Source: Escherichia phage vB_EcoM_PTE-Eco09. From it: a stretch of DNA of 64,000 nt. Position 1 is the first letter of the stretch. Each line of letters starts with the position of its first letter. Made by a program: the position numbers and the translations under genes. Of the stretch, positions 18-9,706 are shown in pieces. The notes beneath the pieces are model-generated. The model had not been told where the DNA came from. It worked only from the letters and a program-made list of their open reading frames with translations, and made no database searches. The stretch is from the sequence record PQ306574.1; one strand, given 5' to 3'.

Positions 18-3000
18 TTAGTCTTCCCAGATAAAGTCTACGGTACGAGTCAGATTATTGGCGATGATTTTAACATTACCAACCTTGATCCAGTCACGAA
101 CCGTCATAGAGTTCATTAAACCACCTTCTGCAACAACTGCCCCGATTTCCTGAGCGGTAGGCTTATTCTGTTTGGTGTAAATTTCACCCCATGCGGTCCA
201 TTGACCACCAGTACCGGAACGGATATAATGTTTATGAGTACCATCAGGGGACCAAAGCTGGGTAAGCCCGTCCGCGTCAGTACCCCATTGCATCAGAGTA
301 CCGTTTTTCTTCTCTGGATAAGTTTCTTTGATGTTCTGGGTAGTAACTCGCATATTCCAGAAACCGATGTTACCGATTGCCGGAGCGGTTGCCGCGCTAG
401 CTTCATGCTTAACAGAAACAATAGGCGCATTATCCATAGTCAGCTTGCCGACCATTGTATCGCCAGCATTCTTAACAAACCGACGGTTAAGAACTTCGTC
501 GGCGTTTCCTGCGTGTACGATCTGATATTTCTGTCCGGCGATCTCTGTAGTTAACGTTTGAGAACCTGCCTTGATGTTAACACTTCCACCGTGACCGATA
601 TTCAGCGTACCATCTGGGGAACGAGTCATTGCCGGATTAGACTGGTCAACAATGTATAAACCGCCTTGTTTCGCATACAGGTTACGACCTGCAATAAAGT
701 CTCTATATGCTGTCGCGTCGCCATTGTGTTTCATAGCAAAGGCGTAATGCTCAACGACTCCACCATCATTGATTTTACCGAAAGAGATAGCATCACTATC
801 AACAACTTGCGCTGTTCCAGTACCACCAACGATAATAGACCAAGAGTTTTTCATTCCTTCCGATGCGGTTGTGCCATGCAGAGTAATTCCGGTGTGACCG
901 TCAACTCCACGATCACCCAACACCAGATGACCATTACTCGGAACATCGGTCGAGTTCTTAGTCACAGACAGAGTTTCAAAGGAACCTGATTTTAAGCACT
1001 CTAAATCGCCCTTCACGTTAACGTTTTTATTAAACGTGTAATTGCTCTCTATGGTCTGATCAATGTCTCTACGCGCCCATTTAGAGGCCTCTACGTTACC
1101 CAATTTCAAACTATTCTGAGCGGTTGCCATCTTAGGTAAGAAATTAGCAAGTGCGTAGTTTAATCCTTTAGGGGTAACAGCAATTCCGTCATGCTGGTAG
1201 TTTCCTAGTTCTTGAGTAGAACCTTGCAGATTATCACCAACAAAACAGTTTTCCTGAGTAGCAACTTTCAAGAATCCACGACGCGCTTCGGTTGCTTTCC
1301 ATGTATCCTCTGTCTGAACAACATATTTGAAGTTCTTCGGAGAAATTGCTACATTGTCCATAATACCAGCCACGGTTTCGGCGTGAGTACCAACTCGGAT
1401 AATACCTTCTTTACCTTCGGTGGCCTTTTTGCCTTGCAGCTTTTTAGGCGTGATGATTGTAGTATCATCTTGACCAGCGTCAGTAAGCTGAGTAGTCGCA
1501 ACTTTAGCGACACCTTTTGTATCTTCGGTTGCATCCAGACCGCTGATCATGATACCTTGCCACAAATCACCAGTAAGGTTAAGCCCCTGAGTCGGATCTA
1601 CTTTCAAACGCTGTGCATTCTCAAAGAAGGTTTTAATCTTCAATGGGGTAGAAATGCGATCATCGTCACGACCTGCGTCAAATTCCGGCTGAGTTGCAAT
1701 TTCTGCTAAACCGTGTAAAGTTTCCGTTGCGCGGCGAGTATGCAACTTTTTAGGCGTGATGATATGGTTATCACTTTGACCTAAGTTTGTTTCTTCCTGA
1801 GTTGCAATTTCAGCGATACCAGTGCGCGATTCGGTAGCAGTACGTTTCGTTAGCGTGCGAGTCGTGATTAGTAAAGCATCTTGCGGGGTTGATTCTGTAG
1901 CCCCTTGCACTTCCGCGTCAGTTGCCAGATAGCCAACACCACGGGAAGTTTCGGTCGCCTTGACTTCGTTGATGTTTTGTGGCGTAACAATTTTAGCATG
2001 GTCGTTGATGTTATAGATCCCTGTACCAGCTTCGCCACGTCGAGCGGCAGCACTACCGCCAACCTGAACAATTTCAGCAATACCAGCGAGATCTTCGGAA
2101 GCGCGACGTTCTTCTAATTTCTTAGGAGTTATTGCGCGAGTATCGTCTAAACCTTCATTGGTTTCGTGCTGGGTTGCAATTTCCATCACACCACGACGGG
2201 CTTCGGTAGCAACACAGTCATTTAACTTTTTGGGTGTAACGATAACATCATCCAGGAAGTTGGAACCAGTATCTTGATGCGTTTCCGCTTGAGTCGCAAT
2301 GCGAGCAATACCGCGTCGAGTTTCGTTGGCTGTTTTATTAGACAGCATTTTTGGTGTTACAGCAACTTCGTCGCTAGGATTCTCTTCATGGTTTTTATTC
2401 GTTTCAGTCTGGGTAGCCAGTGCAATTACACCAACACGATCTTTACGAGTCGGATCTACTCGTTCTACAATCGGGTGAGCATGTGCCACCAACCAGTATT
2501 TCTTACCATCATCACCTTCTGAATAAGAGAACTCCAGATAAGGTACATAATCATTTGCAGCGTTGAAAGACAATTCAGACACTCCAGTCCATGTATCGGT
2601 CCCATTGAATGGGTACTCGCTACGCTTAGGAAACTGAACCATGTTTTTCTGCATAAGGATTTTTGTATCCTCTTCTGAGGTAATGATTCGGCAAGTCTGG
2701 TTTCCGTGCATATACTGCATAGAAACTTGAATACGATCACCCGGCTCGACATTGGTCGGCAGCGTCAGAGTAACATCACGACCACCAAATACAGCAACAT
2801 AGCTATTAGGTTGCAAGCGAGTGTCATTGATGATCGGTTTAAGACGAACAGACTGATCACCATCCCACAAACGCCATAAGTTTTCCGTCTTGTCAAAGAT
2901 GAATACACCATGACCGCTACGCTTACCGATAATCTCTTTTAGACCGGACGTGCCAATTGATTGTTCTTCTGCGTGCTCATGAACTTTAACCGTAACGTGG

Positions 3001-3758
3001 TTGGTTGCGGTTAATCCGTCAAGGTCTGTAGTCTGGATCATGTCGCCATTGTTGGCAAACTTAGGAAGCACTAAGGTAATATTACCCAACGAACTACGAC
3101 GAAATACCTGATCACCATTCTGCATTTGAATAGCATCAATCGCTGGCTGTGCGTACACACCGCGTGGCTCTGTTCCTGTCTGATAAACATGCCAACGATT
3201 ACGAACAAAGATGAAATAGTTCATTGCATACGGGGTAGTGCAATACCATTTTCGGTTGTACACATTACCGTTATGGTAAAACTCATGTCCTGTACTCAAA
3301 AACGATAATTCGTTAACACCACACTTGCCACCGATATCTTTTACTGTTATAGTGTCTCCCTCTGCTGGTTTAGTTGGCATAGAGAAAGTCAAGTTTGCAA
3401 ATTGACCATCTGCTGCGATATAATCACCAGACTGTAAAGGAGTATCACCGGAAGTTGCTGCAATATAATCCCAACGTGGGTCCGTGCGCAGTGCTTGCCA
3501 TTTAGTCGGGTCAAAATCACCTGCTGGCTTTGTGATATCTTCTTTTGCATAATACGGACGGTTTTGATAGATTGTAGTTCCGTATTGATCATAACCGCGA
3601 GTTGTGTCATACTGAGTAATGCCATTATGGTAATTGAAAAATTCAACGTTGACCGCATCCGTTGATGTGTTTTTATCTGCGTATGCTACATTGACGACCT
3701 TTTCATTACCAGCGTCAAAGCCAAATGTGGCCTTGAAATGTTGAGAAAAATCTGCCAT
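18..3758 (-). CDS. 34: long tail fiber proximal subunit (gp34-like)
   Basis: 1246-aa ORF; motifs IGGKxGVN, LPKFANNGD, ENLWRLWDGD, VQFPKRSEYP and C-terminal ...NVKIIANNLTRTVDFIWED match the T4 gp34 pattern as recalled; divergent from rnh as in T4. Confidence 0.85.
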   Translation of the reverse strand: MADFSQHFKATFGFDAGNEKVVNVAYADKNTSTDAVNVEFFNYHNGITQYDTTRGYDQYGTTIYQNRPYYAKEDITKPAGDFDPTKWQALRTDPRWDYIAATSGDTPLQSGDYIAADGQFANLTFSMPTKPAEGDTITVKDIGGKCGVNELSFLSTGHEFYHNGNVYNRKWYCTTPYAMNYFIFVRNRWHVYQTGTEPRGVYAQPAIDAIQMQNGDQVFRRSSLGNITLVLPKFANNGDMIQTTDLDGLTATNHVTVKVHEHAEEQSIGTSGLKEIIGKRSGHGVFIFDKTENLWRLWDGDQSVRLKPIINDTRLQPNSYVAVFGGRDVTLTLPTNVEPGDRIQVSMQYMHGNQTCRIITSEEDTKILMQKNMVQFPKRSEYPFNGTDTWTGVSELSFNAANDYVPYLEFSYSEGDDGKKYWLVAHAHPIVERVDPTRKDRVGVIALATQTETNKNHEENPSDEVAVTPKMLSNKTANETRRGIARIATQAETHQDTGSNFLDDVIVTPKKLNDCVATEARRGVMEIATQHETNEGLDDTRAITPKKLEERRASEDLAGIAEIVQVGGSAAARRGEAGTGIYNINDHAKIVTPQNINEVKATETSRGVGYLATDAEVQGATESTPQDALLITTRTLTKRTATESRTGIAEIATQEETNLGQSDNHIITPKKLHTRRATETLHGLAEIATQPEFDAGRDDDRISTPLKIKTFFENAQRLKVDPTQGLNLTGDLWQGIMISGLDATEDTKGVAKVATTQLTDAGQDDTTIITPKKLQGKKATEGKEGIIRVGTHAETVAGIMDNVAISPKNFKYVVQTEDTWKATEARRGFLKVATQENCFVGDNLQGSTQELGNYQHDGIAVTPKGLNYALANFLPKMATAQNSLKLGNVEASKWARRDIDQTIESNYTFNKNVNVKGDLECLKSGSFETLSVTKNSTDVPSNGHLVLGDRGVDGHTGITLHGTTASEGMKNSWSIIVGGTGTAQVVDSDAISFGKINDGGVVEHYAFAMKHNGDATAYRDFIAGRNLYAKQGGLYIVDQSNPAMTRSPDGTLNIGHGGSVNIKAGSQTLTTEIAGQKYQIVHAGNADEVLNRRFVKNAGDTMVGKLTMDNAPIVSVKHEASAATAPAIGNIGFWNMRVTTQNIKETYPEKKNGTLMQWGTDADGLTQLWSPDGTHKHYIRSGTGGQWTAWGEIYTKQNKPTAQEIGAVVAEGGLMNSMTVRDWIKVGNVKIIANNLTRTVDFIWED

Positions 3759-3792
3759 TATTGGGTCTCCTGTTATAATATGAAATTATTTA

Positions 3793-4374
3793 TTGTGTGA
3801 GGTGTTTGTTGTGGCAAAAACAAAATTTTGGGATATCGAGACACAGAAAGCGATAAAAGGTAGATTCTATCATGTCGATGGAATATTATACCATTTAAAG
3901 GATTCTGTAGCTGCTGGATTCCGAAAAGAAGGGTCCATATACAAAAAAGGTGATGTGGTAAGGGTATGTCTCCATAAAGAAGGATATTTATACTTTACAT
4001 TTTACAACAATGGTCATAAACTTAATCTGTTTGTACATAGAGTTGTCTGGTTTTTAGAGTATGGTACTCAGGTTGAACGAATAGATCACATAGACCAAGA
4101 CAAAACTAACAATAGACCGTCAAACATGAGAGAAGCAACCGAACAGCAAAATCAGTTTAACGTCTCAAAGAAAAAGGCTTGCCATAGCAAATATAAAGGT
4201 GTATCATTATCACCAAGCAAGAAAAAGCCGTGGAAGGCGTATATTGTTATCAATCGAAAGAATATACATCTAGGATACTTTGAGACAGAAGTTGAGGCGG
4301 CTAAGGCTTATGACCGTGCAGCACATGAAATAGTTGGCGAGTATGCTTATTTAAATTTTCCAAAAAGAGGATGA
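3793..4374 (+). CDS. HNH homing-endonuclease-like protein with AP2-type DNA-binding domain
   Basis: HNH-like block (IDHIDQDKTNNRPSNMRE) followed by AP2-like block (KPWKAYIVINRKNIHLGYFETEVEAAKAYDRAA); no in-frame ATG at 5' end, probable TTG/GTG start (3793/3802/3811) after SD GAGGTG. Confidence 0.55.
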   Translation: MCEVFVVAKTKFWDIETQKAIKGRFYHVDGILYHLKDSVAAGFRKEGSIYKKGDVVRVCLHKEGYLYFTFYNNGHKLNLFVHRVVWFLEYGTQVERIDHIDQDKTNNRPSNMREATEQQNQFNVSKKKACHSKYKGVSLSPSKKKPWKAYIVINRKNIHLGYFETEVEAAKAYDRAAHEIVGEYAYLNFPKRG

Positions 4375-4380
4375 TATATT

Positions 4381-4566
4381 ATGGTTAAAGTTGATTTGTC
4401 AGAAGGTGCAAAATGGGTAGTTGACAGAATCCCTGATAAGGATTACAATTATTTCCGCGCCGAATTAAACAATGCAATTCTGCGAGTTATGGAGAAGTAC
4501 GGGTATGACCGTGAAGTATCTAACTCGTTTGGCGAATATGTTGTTGTGAGAGTGGAGAGAACTTAA
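4381..4566 (+). CDS. hypothetical small protein
   Basis: 61-aa ORF tightly packed between HNH gene and rnh, ATG start; no recognisable domain. Confidence 0.4.
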   Translation: MVKVDLSEGAKWVVDRIPDKDYNYFRAELNNAILRVMEKYGYDREVSNSFGEYVVVRVERT

Positions 4567-4568
4567 TT

Positions 4569-5516
4569 ATGACGTATAACCCATTTACAAAAACGACCGC
4601 TACACTTAATGATTTCTTCGATGATCCAGAAGATAAACTGCCGGAAGGTGTGCATTTGATTGATATGTCGCAGCTTATGATTGCTACTATCTCACATACC
4701 TTTAAACCGGAAGATCCTATTAATGAAGGTATGATCCGTCATCTTATCCTTGACACCATGCGTTATAATATGACAAAATTCAAAGAGCAATACCCAATTA
4801 CGGTACTTGCCTTTGATTCAAGCAAAGGTTACTGGCGACGTGATATCGCCCCTTACTATAAACGCAACCGTAAGGAAAAACGAGACGCAGATCCGCGTGA
4901 TTGGGAGATGATCTTTGCTGCGATCAATAAGATCACCGAAGAGTTTAAAGAGAACATGCCTTATCACGTTATTAAGGTTGACAAAGTTGAAGCGGATGAT
5001 ATAATCGCTGTATTAACTAAAAAGTTTTCTGTAGAAGGTCGCCAGGTGCTAATCAACTCCGGCGATGGTGACTACACACAGTTGCACAAATACAAAAATG
5101 TGAAACAGTGGGCACCAGTACAGAAAGCGTGGAAGAAATGCAAATATGGTAGCCCTTACAAAGACCTTATGGTAAAATGTGTTAAGGGTGACGCAAAAGA
5201 CGGTGTAGCTTCTATCAAGTGCCGTAGTGATTTCATTATCTCACGACTGGAAGGAGAACGAGCTAAACCAATTGCAACCAAATGGTTAGAGCAAATTTTC
5301 GATGCCGAAGATCCAAAGTCTTTGATGACAGAGGAAGAAGCACGACGCTTTGACGAAAACCGCGAACTTATTGATTTTGAATTTATTCCTGATAACATCG
5401 AATATGAAATTTTGTTAGCATGGGAAAAATCTAAACCAGCACCACGCGGTAAAATTTATAACTATTTTGTAACAAATGCGTTAGTTAAAATGTTGCAGAA
5501 AATTGGTGAGTTCTAA
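4569..5516 (+). CDS. rnh: RNase H (5'-3' exonuclease / flap endonuclease)
   Basis: 315-aa ORF; strong similarity to recalled T4 RNase H (YWRRD..YYK.NR, MPY..., EADD.IAVL.KKFS.EG, GDGD(Y/F)TQLHKY.NVKQW, IPDNI, PPRGKIY.YFV). Confidence 0.9.
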   Translation: MTYNPFTKTTATLNDFFDDPEDKLPEGVHLIDMSQLMIATISHTFKPEDPINEGMIRHLILDTMRYNMTKFKEQYPITVLAFDSSKGYWRRDIAPYYKRNRKEKRDADPRDWEMIFAAINKITEEFKENMPYHVIKVDKVEADDIIAVLTKKFSVEGRQVLINSGDGDYTQLHKYKNVKQWAPVQKAWKKCKYGSPYKDLMVKCVKGDAKDGVASIKCRSDFIISRLEGERAKPIATKWLEQIFDAEDPKSLMTEEEARRFDENRELIDFEFIPDNIEYEILLAWEKSKPAPRGKIYNYFVTNALVKMLQKIGEF

Positions 5517-5526
5517 GGGTTGACAC

Positions 5527-6126
5527 ATGAAAGAACTTGAATTAAAATACTATGCACACTCACAAATTGGCGTCGAAACCATCTGTGATTTGTGGGTGGC
5601 AATGTATGACGGGTACAATCTCTTAGACCGAGATAACATATTAAAACACGAATTTTATTATGATACCGAAGATCATGCGCTACGTCAAAAAGGAATTTAT
5701 GCACGACTTGACTGTAGAAAATCAGAGATCATGGTCAAAATGGGTGATAATGAATCTGGACTATTCAACCGCGAGGAAATGACATTTTCAAATTGGGATG
5801 AGTTCGTCCATTTTATTGATAGTCTAGGGGTAAACTCCGACTATATCACTGCAATAATGCAAGTAATGACATATCGCAAGTCATTGACTCTAGATATGGG
5901 TTGTGGTATAGTGGAAATGTGCAAAGACACTTTCTATTATGGCAAAGTAGGCGAAGGATTGGGAAACACTGCTCATTATGAACTTGAGTTCGAGTTAAAA
6001 TCAGGTGATGAAAAAGCACTTGACATTATCCGAGAAATGATGCTAGAATATGTTGGTGACGATTTAAGTCCTAGCGAAATTTCAAAAGCTGAACGTGGTT
6101 TTCAATTAATGACGAAAGAGGGTTAA
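5527..6126 (+). CDS. CYTH-like (triphosphate tunnel metalloenzyme) domain protein
   Basis: 199-aa ORF beginning MKELELKYY (ExExK signature) with C-terminal acidic HYELEFELK motif; inserted between rnh and dsbA-like gene relative to T4 order. Confidence 0.45.
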   Translation: MKELELKYYAHSQIGVETICDLWVAMYDGYNLLDRDNILKHEFYYDTEDHALRQKGIYARLDCRKSEIMVKMGDNESGLFNREEMTFSNWDEFVHFIDSLGVNSDYITAIMQVMTYRKSLTLDMGCGIVEMCKDTFYYGKVGEGLGNTAHYELEFELKSGDEKALDIIREMMLEYVGDDLSPSEISKAERGFQLMTKEG

Positions 6127-6131
6127 ATATT

Positions 6132-6407
6132 ATGACTGAACAGAAAAAAGAAAAAGTAGTATTCGATGAAAATGTACACGGAAATACCCTGGCACAACTG
6201 ATTAAAGAAGCCAGCGATCAGAAAACCATTCAAGAAGCATATGGCGATAAGATCAAAGAGATCAAACAGCGTGCTAAAGAAGAATTAGGCGTAGATGGTA
6301 AAATGTGGGGCATTCTGTTTAAACTGTATCACCAGCAACAGCGCGAAACCTTCGAAGCAGAACGCGACGAAGCGGTAGAACTCTATGATCGGGTGTTCAA
6401 TGCTTAA
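6132..6407 (+). CDS. dsbA: DsbA-like dsDNA-binding protein (by synteny)
   Basis: 91-aa basic/acidic ORF in the position of T4 dsbA between rnh and 59; assignment by size and synteny only. Confidence 0.35.
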   Translation: MTEQKKEKVVFDENVHGNTLAQLIKEASDQKTIQEAYGDKIKEIKQRAKEELGVDGKMWGILFKLYHQQQRETFEAERDEAVELYDRVFNA

Positions 6408-6654
6408 TGAACATGCGGTAAAAGCCGCGAATAAAACAGCAAACGGTCTTGCAATCGAAAAACTGGTTGTTGAAGAGGGATTGACTTATCTTGAAGCGAC
6501 AACGCAGTTTGTAGAGGAAAACTCTATCGAATATGGTCACTATCAGAAGTATATTCCGGTGTCCATTATTGACAAGATCACACAAGAATGTATAGTAAAT
6601 AGAACACTCAGGAAGGGAGTGATCGACGAACCAACCAACACTCTCGATATTTAA
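6400..6654 (+). CDS. 33: gp33-like late transcription accessory protein (by synteny)
   Basis: ORF immediately upstream of gene 59, overlapping previous ORF; alternative start 6385; assignment by position only. Confidence 0.3.
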   Translation: MLNEHAVKAANKTANGLAIEKLVVEEGLTYLEATTQFVEENSIEYGHYQKYIPVSIIDKITQECIVNRTLRKGVIDEPTNTLDI

Positions 6655-6663
6655 GGGGTATGT

Positions 6664-7344
6664 ATGATCAGAAACCGTCTTCCTCCAGATCCAGATATGC
6701 GAATTAATGCTAAATCTGTGTATATGTTATATTGCATGATGAAAGCTCATATGAACGGGCGTTATGATTGCGTAAAATACAATTGGAGGATGCGGTTGTC
6801 TGATGCCGCATTCAATAAACGCAGAGATAAGTATTATTTCGCAAAATTAGCGGAAAAGTACAATCTAAGAGAATTATACTTCCTATTCCTAAGCAATCTG
6901 GTAGCTAATACCGATGCATGGGTAGGTGAAATCACCGATGTTGACGCATACGGGTTTTACATGGAGTACATCGGTAAAATCACTGATGCGGCAACACGAT
7001 TTGACGATGACATTAAAAGTCTTGTATACTTCTCAGAGAAACGCGGGGTTACTCTTAAAGAGCTAATTACATATAATCCCGCAACCGAAACTAGCGGTAT
7101 CTTTAAACTACTGCAAAATCGGATTATATCGTTTGAGTCGTTTATGTTGTTAGATAGCTTTCTAAATATAATCGACGAACACGACAAGGTAGCCAAAGAC
7201 TTGATTTGGCAAACTTATAGTGTTAAAATGAAGGCGTACAAGAAACTACTTGTTATTGACGCCGCAAAAGCAAGAGCATTATTTGTTAAAGTAGTTAAAG
7301 AGTGTAAAGAAATATCTCAATTAAAAGCCGAAACAAATAGTTGA
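6664..7344 (+). CDS. 59: helicase loader gp59
   Basis: 226-aa ORF; N-terminus (GKSVYxLYxMxKxHMNGxYDxxKYNWxMRxSDAAxxKRRDKYxFxKLxEKYxLxEL...SNLVANxDAWxG) matches recalled T4 gp59. Confidence 0.85.
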   Translation: MIRNRLPPDPDMRINAKSVYMLYCMMKAHMNGRYDCVKYNWRMRLSDAAFNKRRDKYYFAKLAEKYNLRELYFLFLSNLVANTDAWVGEITDVDAYGFYMEYIGKITDAATRFDDDIKSLVYFSEKRGVTLKELITYNPATETSGIFKLLQNRIISFESFMLLDSFLNIIDEHDKVAKDLIWQTYSVKMKAYKKLLVIDAAKARALFVKVVKECKEISQLKAETNS

Positions 7345-7368
7345 CAAGTAAATTTAAATCTGTATAAT
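7341..7368 (+). promoter_or_regulatory. sigma70-like promoter (TTGACA-16-TATAAT) upstream of gene 32
   Basis: TTGACA at 7341-7346, TATAAT at 7363-7368, followed by AT-rich leader before gene 32 (possible translational operator region). Confidence 0.5.
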
Positions 7369-7404
7369 AGTCTAGTAAATTAATCAAAAGAAGGAATAGT
7401 GAAT

Positions 7405-8373
7405 ATGTTTAAACGCCAAGATTCTTCCAAACTGCAAGCTCAACTGGCCGCACTGAAAGGTGGCAACGGTTTCTCCAAAGAAGATCCGAAAGAGTGGAAG
7501 ATTAAGACTGATGCAGCAGGTAACGGTGAAGCCCTGATTCGCTTCCTGCCGTCTAAGACAGAAGACGGTCTGCCGATTGTGAAACTGGTAAACCATTCCT
7601 TCAAAGTTAATGGCAAATGGTATTGGGAAAACTGCTCCAGCACCCACGGTGATTTTGATTCTTGCCCTGTGTGCAAATATATTAACGAAAAAGACTTGTA
7701 CAATACCGATAAAACCGAATGGCAACTGATTAAGCGTAAAGCGTCTTACTACGCAAACATTCTGGTACTGAAAGATCCTCAAGCACCAGAAAATGAAGGT
7801 AAGGTATTCAAATTCCGCTTCGGTCAGAAAATTTATGATAAGATCGTTGCAATGGTGAACGTGAATACCGATATGGGCGAAGTTCCGGTCGATGTAACTT
7901 GTGTGTTCTCTGGTGCTAACTTCCTCCTGAAAGCTAAGAAGGTTGATAAACACCAGAACTATGATGATTCTCGTTTCATGCAGCAATCACAGCTTCCGAA
8001 AATTGAAGACGAAGCATATCAGAAATATCTGATGGAAAACATGGTTGATCTGAGTGAGATTGTAGCGCCTAGCCAGTTTAAACCGTTCGATGAACTGGAA
8101 ACCAAATTTAAGAAAACTATGGGCGTTTCTATGGTAGCTGGTGCTGCGGCTTCCAGTGCTGCGGCAGCGATTAACAGCCAGCTTGACGATTTTGACGCAC
8201 AGATGAATGCATTCGATTCTGGTATGACCGCAGCTAACACTGTAGTTGGTATTAACGCAGCTAGCACGGCGTTAGATTCTTCCGCTGATGACCTGATGGC
8301 ATCTCTGGACCTGGGTGGCGGTACTTCCTCCGCTTCTGATCTGGATGATCTTGACGCTCTGTTAGGGATGTAA
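7405..8373 (+). CDS. 32: single-stranded DNA-binding protein gp32
   Basis: Strong match to recalled T4 gp32 (LPSKxEDG, VNHxFKxNGKWYxExCSSTHGDxDSCPVCxYI, [29 protein letters not shown]); ATG at 7405 preceded by SD AAGGAA. Confidence 0.95.
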
Positions 8374-8384
8374 TGAATTTTACA

Positions 8385-8408
8385 GCCTCCCTCCGGGAGG
8401 CTTTTTTA
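8385..8408 (+). terminator. intrinsic terminator after gene 32
   Basis: GCCTCCC-TCC-GGGAGGC hairpin followed by TTTTTTA. Confidence 0.7.
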
Positions 8409-8433
8409 TTGCCTAAAATTTTATGAAAAGGTG

Positions 8434-8461
8434 TTGACATGCTTATGTGGTAATGTATAAT
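8434..8461 (+). promoter_or_regulatory. early sigma70-like promoter (TTGACA-16-TATAAT) with conserved leader
   Basis: TTGACA 8434-8439, TATAAT 8456-8461, then conserved GCACACATCGAAACA leader and SD. Confidence 0.6.
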
Positions 8462-8491
8462 GCACACATCGAAACAATGGAGGATAAAAAT

Positions 8492-9706
8492 ATGTTAGTA
8501 CGTCAAGCGCATGAAATTGAATGGACTAAGGAGAAACATAATTGTAGAGCGAAAAGCCCAACAGATTTTTATGGTAAAATTTTAGAAATATGTAAAACAG
8601 AAAATTTAGTTTTTGTCGGCTTTGTTGGGGAATGGGAAGGAAACAAAACAAAAATAAAACTTATCTGCGAACATGGTCATGAATGGATATGTTCGATAGA
8701 TAAATTTGTAAGTAAAGGAACAAGATGTTCTCATAAACAATGTAAAGGTAAACGAATATCTAAAAAATTGTCTATATCCGAAACGGAATACAAAACGAGA
8801 ATTTTAGAAATATGTGAAACTGAAAATCTAATTTTCTTAGGTTTTGTTGGTGAATGGAAAGGGTGTGATACTAAAATTCGCATAAAATGCAAATACGGTC
8901 ATGAATGGGATGTATCTATATATAGCTTCACAAAAATGAATACCAGATGCCCTACATGCGCAGGACAGAACAGGACAAAAGACGAATACAAAACGAGAAT
9001 TTTAGAAATATGTGAAACTGAAAATATAATTTTCTTAGGTTTTGTTGGTGAATGGAAAGGATGCCGCACAAAAATAAAACTTAGCTGCAAACACGGTCAT
9101 GAATGGATATCTTCCATATTATGTTTTGTGTATCAAAATACTCGCTGTCCTGTATGTGTTGGTAGATTGTCTATCGACGATAGAATGATACAGATTAATC
9201 AAGTTTGCAATTCTTTAGGTTATGTAATAATTAAGATCCACGAAGAATGGAAAAACACAGAAACTAAAATTGATGTTAAATGTTTATGTGATTATATATG
9301 GACAACAACAATACATAGAGTCATACATGGGACTACAGGTTGCAGAAAGTGTGCTACACATGGATACAATACAAAAAAATCGGGGACTCTTTATATACAG
9401 AAATTAACCAACGATGATTCCTTTGTTGGTGTGAAATTTGGAATAACAAACAGAGACACGAATGAACGAATGAAAAACCAATCATCAAAGTCTAAATTCG
9501 ACCATGAGATCTTTTATGAATTGACTTTACAAGACGGTCAAAAGATCTTAGAATTAGAGAACAAGATCAAGAAAGCGATGAAAGGTAAAACTTCCTATAT
9601 CTCAAAAGAAGATATGCCGGATGGCTGGACCGAAACAGTAGCGCCGTCTGAATTGAGCACTATCATGTATATCGTAAAAACTTTTGAAAAAGAGTTGACA
9701 GCGTAA
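8492..9706 (+). CDS. protein with three tandem Cys/His zinc-ribbon-like repeats and C-terminal T5orf172/GIY-YIG-superfamily-like domain
   Basis: Repeated block YKTRILEICETENxIFLGFVGEWKGCxTKIxxxCKxGHEW...TRCPxC three times; C-terminus LYIQKL...FVGVKFGITNRDTNERMK resembles T5orf172; occupies the segG position between 32 and frd. Confidence 0.5.
   Translation: MLVRQAHEIEWTKEKHNCRAKSPTDFYGKILEICKTENLVFVGFVGEWEGNKTKIKLICEHGHEWICSIDKFVSKGTRCSHKQCKGKRISKKLSISETEYKTRILEICETENLIFLGFVGEWKGCDTKIRIKCKYGHEWDVSIYSFTKMNTRCPTCAGQNRTKDEYKTRILEICETENIIFLGFVGEWKGCRTKIKLSCKHGHEWISSILCFVYQNTRCPVCVGRLSIDDRMIQINQVCNSLGYVIIKIHEEWKNTETKIDVKCLCDYIWTTTIHRVIHGTTGCRKCATHGYNTKKSGTLYIQKLTNDDSFVGVKFGITNRDTNERMKNQSSKSKFDHEIFYELTLQDGQKILELENKIKKAMKGKTSYISKEDMPDGWTETVAPSELSTIMYIVKTFEKELTA
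8578..9150 (+). repeat. intragenic tandem repeats (about 200-225 bp units, 3 copies)
   Basis: Near-identical stretches such as ACGAGAATTTTAGAAATATGTGAAACTGAAAAT...TTTCTTAGGTTTTGTTGGTGAATGGAAAGG at about 8801 and 8999, and a diverged copy at about 8578. Confidence 0.7.

Follow-up and report, generated by a model that had tools for sequence, protein, structure and literature searches.

A standalone YgiF-like CYTH/TTM protein in the rnh–dsbA interval of Krischvirus phages

Introduction

The classic viral use of the triphosphate tunnel metalloenzyme (TTM) fold is that of the capping RNA triphosphatases, and the physiological role of YgiF-like enzymes is unsettled. Loss of the arginine equivalent to YgiF R56 abolishes activity, and the glutamate of metal site 1 (YgiF E160) is invariant in all characterised TTMs (PMC4641920). 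In those TTMs that act on small molecules, a plug helix closes the tunnel end holding the organic part of the substrate (PMC4641920, PMC8233210). A survey of jumbo phages suggested that CYTH triphosphatases might degrade unmodified nucleoside triphosphates (PMC7824862), and in the literature searched no phage TTM turned out to have been studied functionally. Here a gene of this kind is described from a 64,000-nucleotide stretch (hereafter the window) of Escherichia phage vB_EcoM_PTE-Eco09 (PQ306574.1), the source genome being a Krischvirus, that is an RB49/Phi1-like T4-type coliphage:

5527..6126, plus strand: CYTH gene (coding sequence, 199 aa), a standalone YgiF-type CYTH/TTM domain; orthologue of RB49ORF244c; PHROG 14893.

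The YgiF/CYTH identity of this gene is already public and is not new. The GenBank note on RB49ORF244c reads 'similar to P45267, P30871, HI1598, ygiF', and the same gene was listed with 'CYTH domain, E=0.0026' by Nolan et al. 2006 (PMC1524935), whilst PHROG 14893 holds the family as 'unknown function'. What appear to be unreported are a syntenic phage clade (rnh-X-dsbA) with a remodelled tunnel of RxD type and an ancient-allele cassette within the gene; definition of the first, description of the second and rejection of a cyclase label are what the present analysis adds.

Results

A YgiF-like protein with a complete catalytic core

The CYTH gene encodes a genuine CYTH/TTM protein that is most like E. 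coli YgiF. The Pfam CYTH profile (PF01928) matches residues 27-191 (E=8e-7) with 29.5 bits, where the gathering threshold is 23.2, and an AlphaFold2 model generated from a 14-sequence family alignment (mean predicted local distance difference test score, pLDDT, 93.2; predicted template modelling score, pTM, 0.86) contains eight long β strands, two long helices and a C-terminal helix. Among all PDB sequences the family profile matches YgiF only (E=2.8e-13). An earlier note, made from the DNA sequence alone, had proposed a CYTH-like protein here from acidic motifs at the two ends of the reading frame, ELELKYY and YELEFE, and had named the PF01928 profile and the predicted fold as checks. Its description and coordinates of the open reading frame (ORF) are right and both motifs are present at those ends (the N-terminus is MKELELKYY, and YELEFELK occupies residues 151-158); the profile match lies above the Pfam cut-off, and the eight long strands form a tunnel with a C-terminal plug helix at high confidence. 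The proposed CYTH/TTM identity is thus borne out by the Pfam match, the AlphaFold2 tunnel and the catalytic residues. Roles of the latter were taken from a profile alignment to YgiF, read against the crystallography and mutagenesis of YgiF and AtTTM3 (PMC4641920):

5533..5547, plus strand: E3-L-E5-L-K7, the ExExK motif of strand 1; in the profile alignment E3 and E5 fall on the metal site 2 residues E4 and E6 of YgiF, and K7 on K8.
5704..5712, plus strand: R60-L-D62; R60 corresponds to YgiF R56, the catalytic Arg, and D62 stands in place of the second Arg of RxR.
K71: corresponds to YgiF K69, a substrate-binding Lys.
R82 and E84: correspond to YgiF R81 and E83 in the profile alignment.
5980..6000, plus strand: E152-L-E154-F-E156-L-K158 of strand 8; the YgiF equivalents are E160, of metal site 1, for E154 and E162, of metal site 2, for E156.
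6082..6099, plus strand: S186-K-A-E-R-G191, the start of the C-terminal plug helix, which reads SKAARG in YgiF.

Neither the phage alleles, of which the most divergent are 30% identical, nor the cellular relatives vary at the catalytic residues mapped from YgiF, and the conserved residues include those of the basic tunnel and the acidic C-terminal positions (E152, E154, E156, R60, K71, R82, R117, K158, K187 and R190). Since the catalytic residues are all invariant, the protein has everything needed for the two-metal TTM mechanism. No match to a CHAD domain was found, and the protein ends eight residues past the plug helix.

'Triphosphatase or cyclase' had been the earlier note's formulation of the function; the hydrolase half of it stands and the cyclase half does not. 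According to Vogt et al. 2021 (PMC8233210), a true class IV adenylate cyclase has three sequence features: an HF pair situated four residues ahead of ExExK (HFxxxxExExK), a small residue where RxR would have its first Arg, and Ala where the strand-8 ExE would have its second Glu. The HF motif is not present ahead of ExExK in the phage protein, where only M1-K2 precede E3; unlike in the class IV cyclases, the first Arg of RxR is kept as the invariant R60 and the second Glu of ExE is kept in E154-F-E156. There was also no match between the protein and the NCBIfam cyaB equivalog TIGR00318 at E<=1, and adenylate cyclase was rejected on the three sequence discriminators together with this missing model match. 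Production of cyclic AMP by a class IV (CyaB-type) enzyme, as a means of manipulating the host, is consequently a highly improbable function, although the protein belongs to the same superfamily, structures of class IV cyclases are among its weaker structural matches and four listed phage records are annotated in this sense. Public labels for the same gene are in fact inconsistent (OR352938, OR525698, MK573636, MN894885, MN709127), being 'adenylate cyclase' in the four listed records, 'inorganic triphosphatase' in two and also 'hypothetical protein'. Because the cyclase discriminators fail, the first of these labels is unsupported; judged from the sequence, 'inorganic triphosphatase' would be the better guess. 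The main effect of the analysis is therefore a correction of annotation, to a YgiF-type hydrolase, and the 'adenylate cyclase' labels are not to be trusted.

Other family assignments were also considered and rejected. Thiamine triphosphatase (ThTPase) is characterised by WxRxR, which is absent, the sequence reading Y58-A-R60-L-D62 (YxRxD). As to a Cet1-like mRNA triphosphatase, neither profile nor structure is closest to Cet1 or the capping enzymes, the similarity to Cet1 being weak. Weak phmmer matches, to the immunity protein TriTu and others, were treated as chance.

Distribution of the phage clade

The 2.8 kb around the CYTH gene match 58 phage records (90-99.5% identity), every one an Escherichia or Shigella Krischvirus. 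The gene is present in 58/58 records of this backbone and intact in 57; the disrupted copy, in phage vB_EcoM_G2494 (MK327935), consists of two coding sequences of 66 and 130 aa at positions 1201-1796 of the locus, which indicates a frameshift or a sequencing error. An exhaustive hidden Markov model search of 1.84 billion representative sequences returned 3347 relatives at E<=1e-3 and just three at E<=1e-30, which sets the phage family apart as a small and isolated branch. Members further removed from the window protein (P0042, 58% identity; P0043, 47%; P0045, 36%; P0193, 33%; P0055, 30%) belong to T4-like phages that share 64-80% identity with the window in DsbA and gp33. They lie always directly before dsbA-gp33, and after rnh where the contig extends that far, and since they share this slot it must be old and stable within a T4-like phage sub-branch. 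Scanning IMG/VR with the family alignment found three loci, and scans with P0045 and P0055 found none. The nearest cellular relatives (23-30% identity, E 1e-25 to 1e-13) occur in Gamma- and Betaproteobacteria, as CYTH proteins that either stand alone or are fused to CHAD.

The predicted tunnel lining differs from that of cellular relatives

The catalytic core is common to the phage clade and to the 94 cellular relatives (14 + 80) with which it was compared, but the lining of the tunnel differs coherently. Inward- and outward-facing residues were assigned by strand parity anchored on the catalytic residues, not from model coordinates, and the distinguishing positions are as follows:

Position 62: Asp or Asn in all members of the phage clade; Arg in 94/94 cellular relatives.
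Position 58: Tyr in 4/6 clade representatives, Val or Ile in P0045 and P0055, and in one Krischvirus allele Ser; in cellular relatives a small residue such as Ala and in no case an aromatic one.
Position 40: Lys in the phage clade; Leu or Ile in cellular relatives.
Position 42: Glu in the phage clade; Asn, Ser or Thr in cellular relatives.
Position 80: Phe in the phage clade; mostly His in cellular relatives.
Position 150: His in the phage clade; Ile, Leu or Val in cellular relatives.

The phage clade also has Y9, C132, F136 and Y138. With the exception of position 58, the clade-specific lining residues are nearly invariant among phage alleles that are approximately 40% identical there, which argues that they are selected and not the product of drift; overall, 60% of inward-facing strand residues are invariant as against 11% of outward-facing ones (Fisher p=8e-7). 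In ThTPase, a Trp at the equivalent of position 58 stacks on thiamine and an Arg at the equivalent of position 62 contacts the β and γ phosphates (PMC8233210), whilst the AtTTM3 mutant R54A, equivalent to the change at position 62, keeps activity (PMC4641920). Judging from these lining residues, the phage clade may bind something other than, or in addition to, plain inorganic tripolyphosphate (PPPi).

Ancient alleles exchanged on a near-identical backbone

Comparison of near-identical Krischvirus genomes divides the gene into two parts:

5557..5976, plus strand: variable cassette (codons 11-150), found as four allele classes that are 37-57% identical to one another in amino acids although the Krischvirus backbones carrying them are near-identical.
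5977..6126, plus strand: conserved 3' third, codons 151-199; 88-100% amino acid identity between allele classes.

Between the window and phage Skers, the CYTH proteins are 57% identical, as compared with 97-100% for the neighbouring proteins, and DNA identity drops from approximately 99% to 48-67% across 5559-6008 before returning to 99-100%. By the Nei-Gojobori method, synonymous sites in the cassette are saturated (proportion of synonymous differences, pS, 0.76-0.78), whereas the same genome pairs have a pS of 0-0.18 in rnh, in dsbA and in the 3' third of the gene itself. Nonsynonymous divergence (dN) of the cassette between the window and Skers (0.56) is about that between the window and the far more distant phage of locus L010 (0.59). 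The gene as a whole evolves two to three times faster than its neighbours, and where measurable its ratio of nonsynonymous to synonymous change (dN/dS, or omega) is 0.20-0.34, against 0-0.13 in the flanks. Invariance within the cassette depends on facing: 18/36 inward-facing strand residues are invariant but 0/36 outward-facing ones (Fisher p=4e-7).

A saturated cassette between flanks of low pS indicates that ancient alleles have been exchanged, by homologous recombination acting through the conserved ends of the gene. T4-like phages, RB49/phi1 among them, are well known to shuffle their accessory genes in this way (PMC4122927). Local hypermutation, or positive selection in situ or across the gene, was rejected as the origin of the cassette on the contrast between its saturated pS and the flank values of 0-0.18 and on an omega of 0.2-0.34. 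A special constraint on the 3' third, such as an embedded element, was likewise rejected; its pS is like that of dsbA, and it therefore belongs to the backbone. The pattern of the cassette is compatible with conflict-driven diversification of the protein surface without proving it. As a clean natural experiment, in which four deeply diverged exteriors surround the same catalytic tunnel in otherwise near-identical phages, the locus makes allele-swap experiments straightforward.

A second small variable patch was observed at the 3' end of rnh (5379-5468), where DNA identity to Skers and RB49 is 77-80% compared with 93-100% in the rest of rnh; it may be another recombination tract.

Genomic context and candidate expression signals

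Genes around the CYTH gene in the window are:

18..3758, minus strand: gp34 (Pfam and PHROG matches).
3793..4374, plus strand: HNH-AP2 endonuclease (Pfam and PHROG matches).
4569..5516, plus strand: rnh (RNase H / 5'-3' exonuclease), the upstream neighbour.
6132..6407, plus strand: dsbA, the downstream neighbour.

A 61-aa ORF sits between the HNH-AP2 endonuclease gene and rnh, and gene order continues beyond dsbA with gp33, gp59 and gp32. The CYTH gene is closely packed, starting 10 nt after the rnh stop codon and ending 5 nt before dsbA. In T4, dsbA follows rnh by only 8 nt with no gene between them, and the statement in the earlier note that T4 has no gene here was right. Signals of possible relevance to its expression are:

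5515..5519, plus strand: AAGGG, Shine-Dalgarno-like, 7 nt before the ATG and overlapping the rnh stop codon.
4978..5005, plus strand: perfect sigma-70-type match, TTGACA-16-TATAAT with TG, inside rnh approximately 520 nt upstream; candidate early promoter of the CYTH gene.
5520-5548, plus strand: sigma-70-like site (11/12) with its -35 TTGACA directly before the CYTH ATG; junction kept in locus L013.
6020..6049, plus strand: promoter-like site (11/12, with TG) in the conserved 3' part, approximately 85 nt before the dsbA ATG; a consensus match only.

The junction AAGGGTTGACA(C/T)ATG is also kept in the distant locus L013, and the site at 6020..6049 may drive early transcription of dsbA-33-59. 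The plus strand of 3700-8500 is enriched in sigma-70-type sites (26 seen against 14.2 +/- 4.0 expected), a further one of which precedes gp32 at the place of an early promoter annotated in RB49; near-perfect sigma-70 early promoters have been reported for RB49/phi1 (PMC4122927). No TATAAATA late promoter was found near the CYTH gene. The gene is likely co-transcribed early with replication genes including rnh and dsbA.

Two further ORFs were also noted in this region. The ORF at 3793-4374 (plus strand), which resembles HNH and AP2 homing endonucleases, is not at that position in RB49, Skers or metagenomic Krischvirus contigs; Skers has an HNH gene between gp59 and gp32, the position of SegG in T4. 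Just past gp32 is an ORF of 419 aa (8447-9706, plus strand) in which the CapR homology domain is repeated four times in tandem (PF21817, E=2.7e-31) and which also matches a treble-clef zinc finger (DUF4379), the Skers gene at the same place being annotated 'GIY-YIG nuclease family protein'.

Discussion

Proposed mechanism

From the fold, residue conservation, synteny and evolutionary pattern observed here we infer activity, metals, timing and substrate, and consider it likely that the CYTH gene encodes an early-expressed, active, standalone YgiF-type two-metal hydrolase whose substrate, a small triphosphate compound, sits in a plugged tunnel. The closed eight-strand β tunnel would be capped by the C-terminal SKAERG plug helix, with the triphosphate moiety held in it by K7, R60, K71, R82, R117, K158, K187 and R190. 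E154 would be linked to the triphosphate through metal 1 (Mg2+ or Mn2+), whilst metal 2, held by E3, E5 and E156 with E84 in the second shell, would activate a water molecule for attack on the terminal phosphate. The leaving group would be stabilised by R60, and the products would be orthophosphate and the diphosphate form of the substrate. It is the plugged tunnel that argues for a small triphosphate compound. By homology the default substrate would be PPPi; an organic triphosphate is at least as likely, because E. coli pyrophosphatase clears PPPi and because the pocket is remodelled (RxR to RxD, with added Tyr, Phe, His, Lys and Glu). The E. coli pyrophosphatase hydrolyses PPPi efficiently, and PPPi is undetectable in E. 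coli extracts (PMC3440374).

Several points weigh against this interpretation. As E. coli already clears PPPi, a plain PPPi hydrolase (PPPase) would be of no obvious benefit to the phage. The pocket geometry derives from strand parity, and the activity is predicted from sequence. D62 could lower or alter triphosphate binding, since the Arg that it replaces contacts the β and γ phosphates in ThTPase (PMC8233210) and is invariant in 94/94 cellular relatives, a concern offset by the activity of AtTTM3 R54A (PMC4641920). The gene is split in 1/58 isolates (G2494) and so may be dispensable in the laboratory.

Alternative functions

Were the gene a non-catalytic or decaying remnant, with the tunnel fold kept for binding or the gene drifting to loss, its split in isolate G2494 and its evolution at two to three times the rate of its neighbours would be accounted for; invariance of all catalytic residues down to 30% identity, strong conservation of the tunnel lining against a variable exterior, a dN/dS of 0.2-0.34 and an intact gene in 57/58 records make this very unlikely. 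Somewhat different considerations apply to an RNA 5'-triphosphatase, removing the γ phosphate of 5'-triphosphorylated RNA (pppRNA) either from host mRNAs, so feeding RppH/RNase E decay, or from the pppRNA primers removed by the neighbouring RNase H. The E. coli RNA γ-phosphatase is still unidentified (PMC8565310) and the CYTH gene lies directly after rnh in a replication gene cluster, but in T4-like clusters a neighbouring position says little about shared function, and similarity to Cet1 is weak. The plug helix SKAERG is moreover kept, and as this helix closes the tunnel end it leaves little room for an RNA chain, so that such an activity seems distinctly doubtful.

The gene could instead encode a counter-defence or host-signalling enzyme that hydrolyses the triphosphate of an alarmone or immune messenger and so blunts the host response, example targets being pppGpp, a dNTP-derived signal or a 5'-triphosphorylated oligonucleotide, with exchange of surface alleles reflecting conflict with host factors that recognise the protein. 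The suggestion in the earlier note that a phage enzyme of this kind could interfere with host signalling is likewise speculation. Phage enzymes destroying nucleotide messengers are a major theme of phage-host conflict. The pocket is remodelled, conserved and more aromatic, with Tyr58 at the position of the substrate-stacking Trp of ThTPase; the gene is a lineage-specific accessory in a core gene cluster and is missing from T4; a plain PPPase seems redundant in E. coli; and ancient alleles have been swapped among near-identical genomes with all variation on the barrel exterior, a pattern common for conflict genes. However, no match was found with the PADLOC defence and anti-defence models, the literature search found no paper linking CYTH/TTM proteins to anti-phage defence or phage counter-defence, a dN/dS of 0.2-0.34 gives no gene-level positive selection, and no result here implicates any candidate messenger. 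Mosaicism of alleles is in addition common across the T4-like phages and may be neutral (PMC4122927). Such a role is thus unlikely on balance, and equally speculative is the idea that the RxD clade was retooled from a YgiF-like tripolyphosphatase into a hydrolase of an organic triphosphate relevant in infection (an alarmone, an immune messenger or RNA 5' ends). If true, this would be the first TTM-family enzyme of phage counter-defence or host takeover, and the allele swapping would record conflict with host factors that recognise it. The importance of the clade would grow if the remodelled pocket means a new substrate, no TTM being tied to phage-host conflict in the literature searched.

Relation to characterised enzymes

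Scattered CYTH domains have been noted before in other phages (Aeh1ORF004c, Aeromonas phage 65.2/D3 and the CYTH triphosphatases of jumbo phages; PMC1524935, PMC7824862). These occupy genomic positions other than the rnh-dsbA slot and are not detectably orthologous to the protein described here, tblastn giving no match at E<=1e-3 and Foldseek TM-scores of approximately 0.4-0.5. The Cet1-type and viral capping RNA triphosphatases (yeast Cet1, vaccinia D1, mimivirus, baculovirus LEF-4) have in common with it the TTM fold, in their case used for γ-phosphate hydrolysis, and the class IV adenylate cyclase CyaB of Aeromonas and Yersinia (PDB 2FJT, 3N0Y) belongs to the same CYTH superfamily with the same tunnel fold. 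Mammalian ThTPase (PDB 3BHD, 5A64) is a small-molecule TTM with a plug helix that acts on an organic triphosphate, and the phage Tyr58 places an aromatic residue at the position of its thiazole-stacking Trp53.

Outside the phage clade the nearest proteins are the YgiF-like CYTH proteins of proteobacteria, either standalone with approximately 200 aa or fused to CHAD (50/80 cellular relatives exceed 400 aa), which have the full catalytic core in common with the phage protein. All 94 have RxR, a small residue at position 58, hydrophobic residues at 40 and 150 and usually His at 80. One bacterial protein of 30% identity, P0044, is encoded beside PhoU/PHO4 phosphate-transport genes, a context different from that of the phage gene. 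In both loci carrying it (L011, 3597-4187; L012, 3690-4280) its gene is divergent to the PhoU-like and PHO4 genes and upstream of an RsmD-like methyltransferase gene, a neighbourhood suggestive of a link between cellular standalone CYTH proteins and phosphate metabolism.

The best match of the phage protein in both sequence and structure is E. coli YgiF, a CYTH-CHAD inorganic triphosphatase (PDB 5A60/5A61). Both have ExExK, the catalytic Arg, the Lys69 equivalent, R-x-E, ExExE and the SKA(A/E)RG plug helix, and the same two-metal mechanism would be expected by analogy (PMC4641920). The two proteins are nevertheless only 22% identical, and the phage protein differs from YgiF in being without the CHAD polyphosphate-binding domain, in having Asp for the second Arg of RxR and in its lining at Y9, K40, E42, Y58, F80 and H150. 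YgiF is moreover a cellular enzyme, whereas the CYTH gene is a gene of the phage early region.
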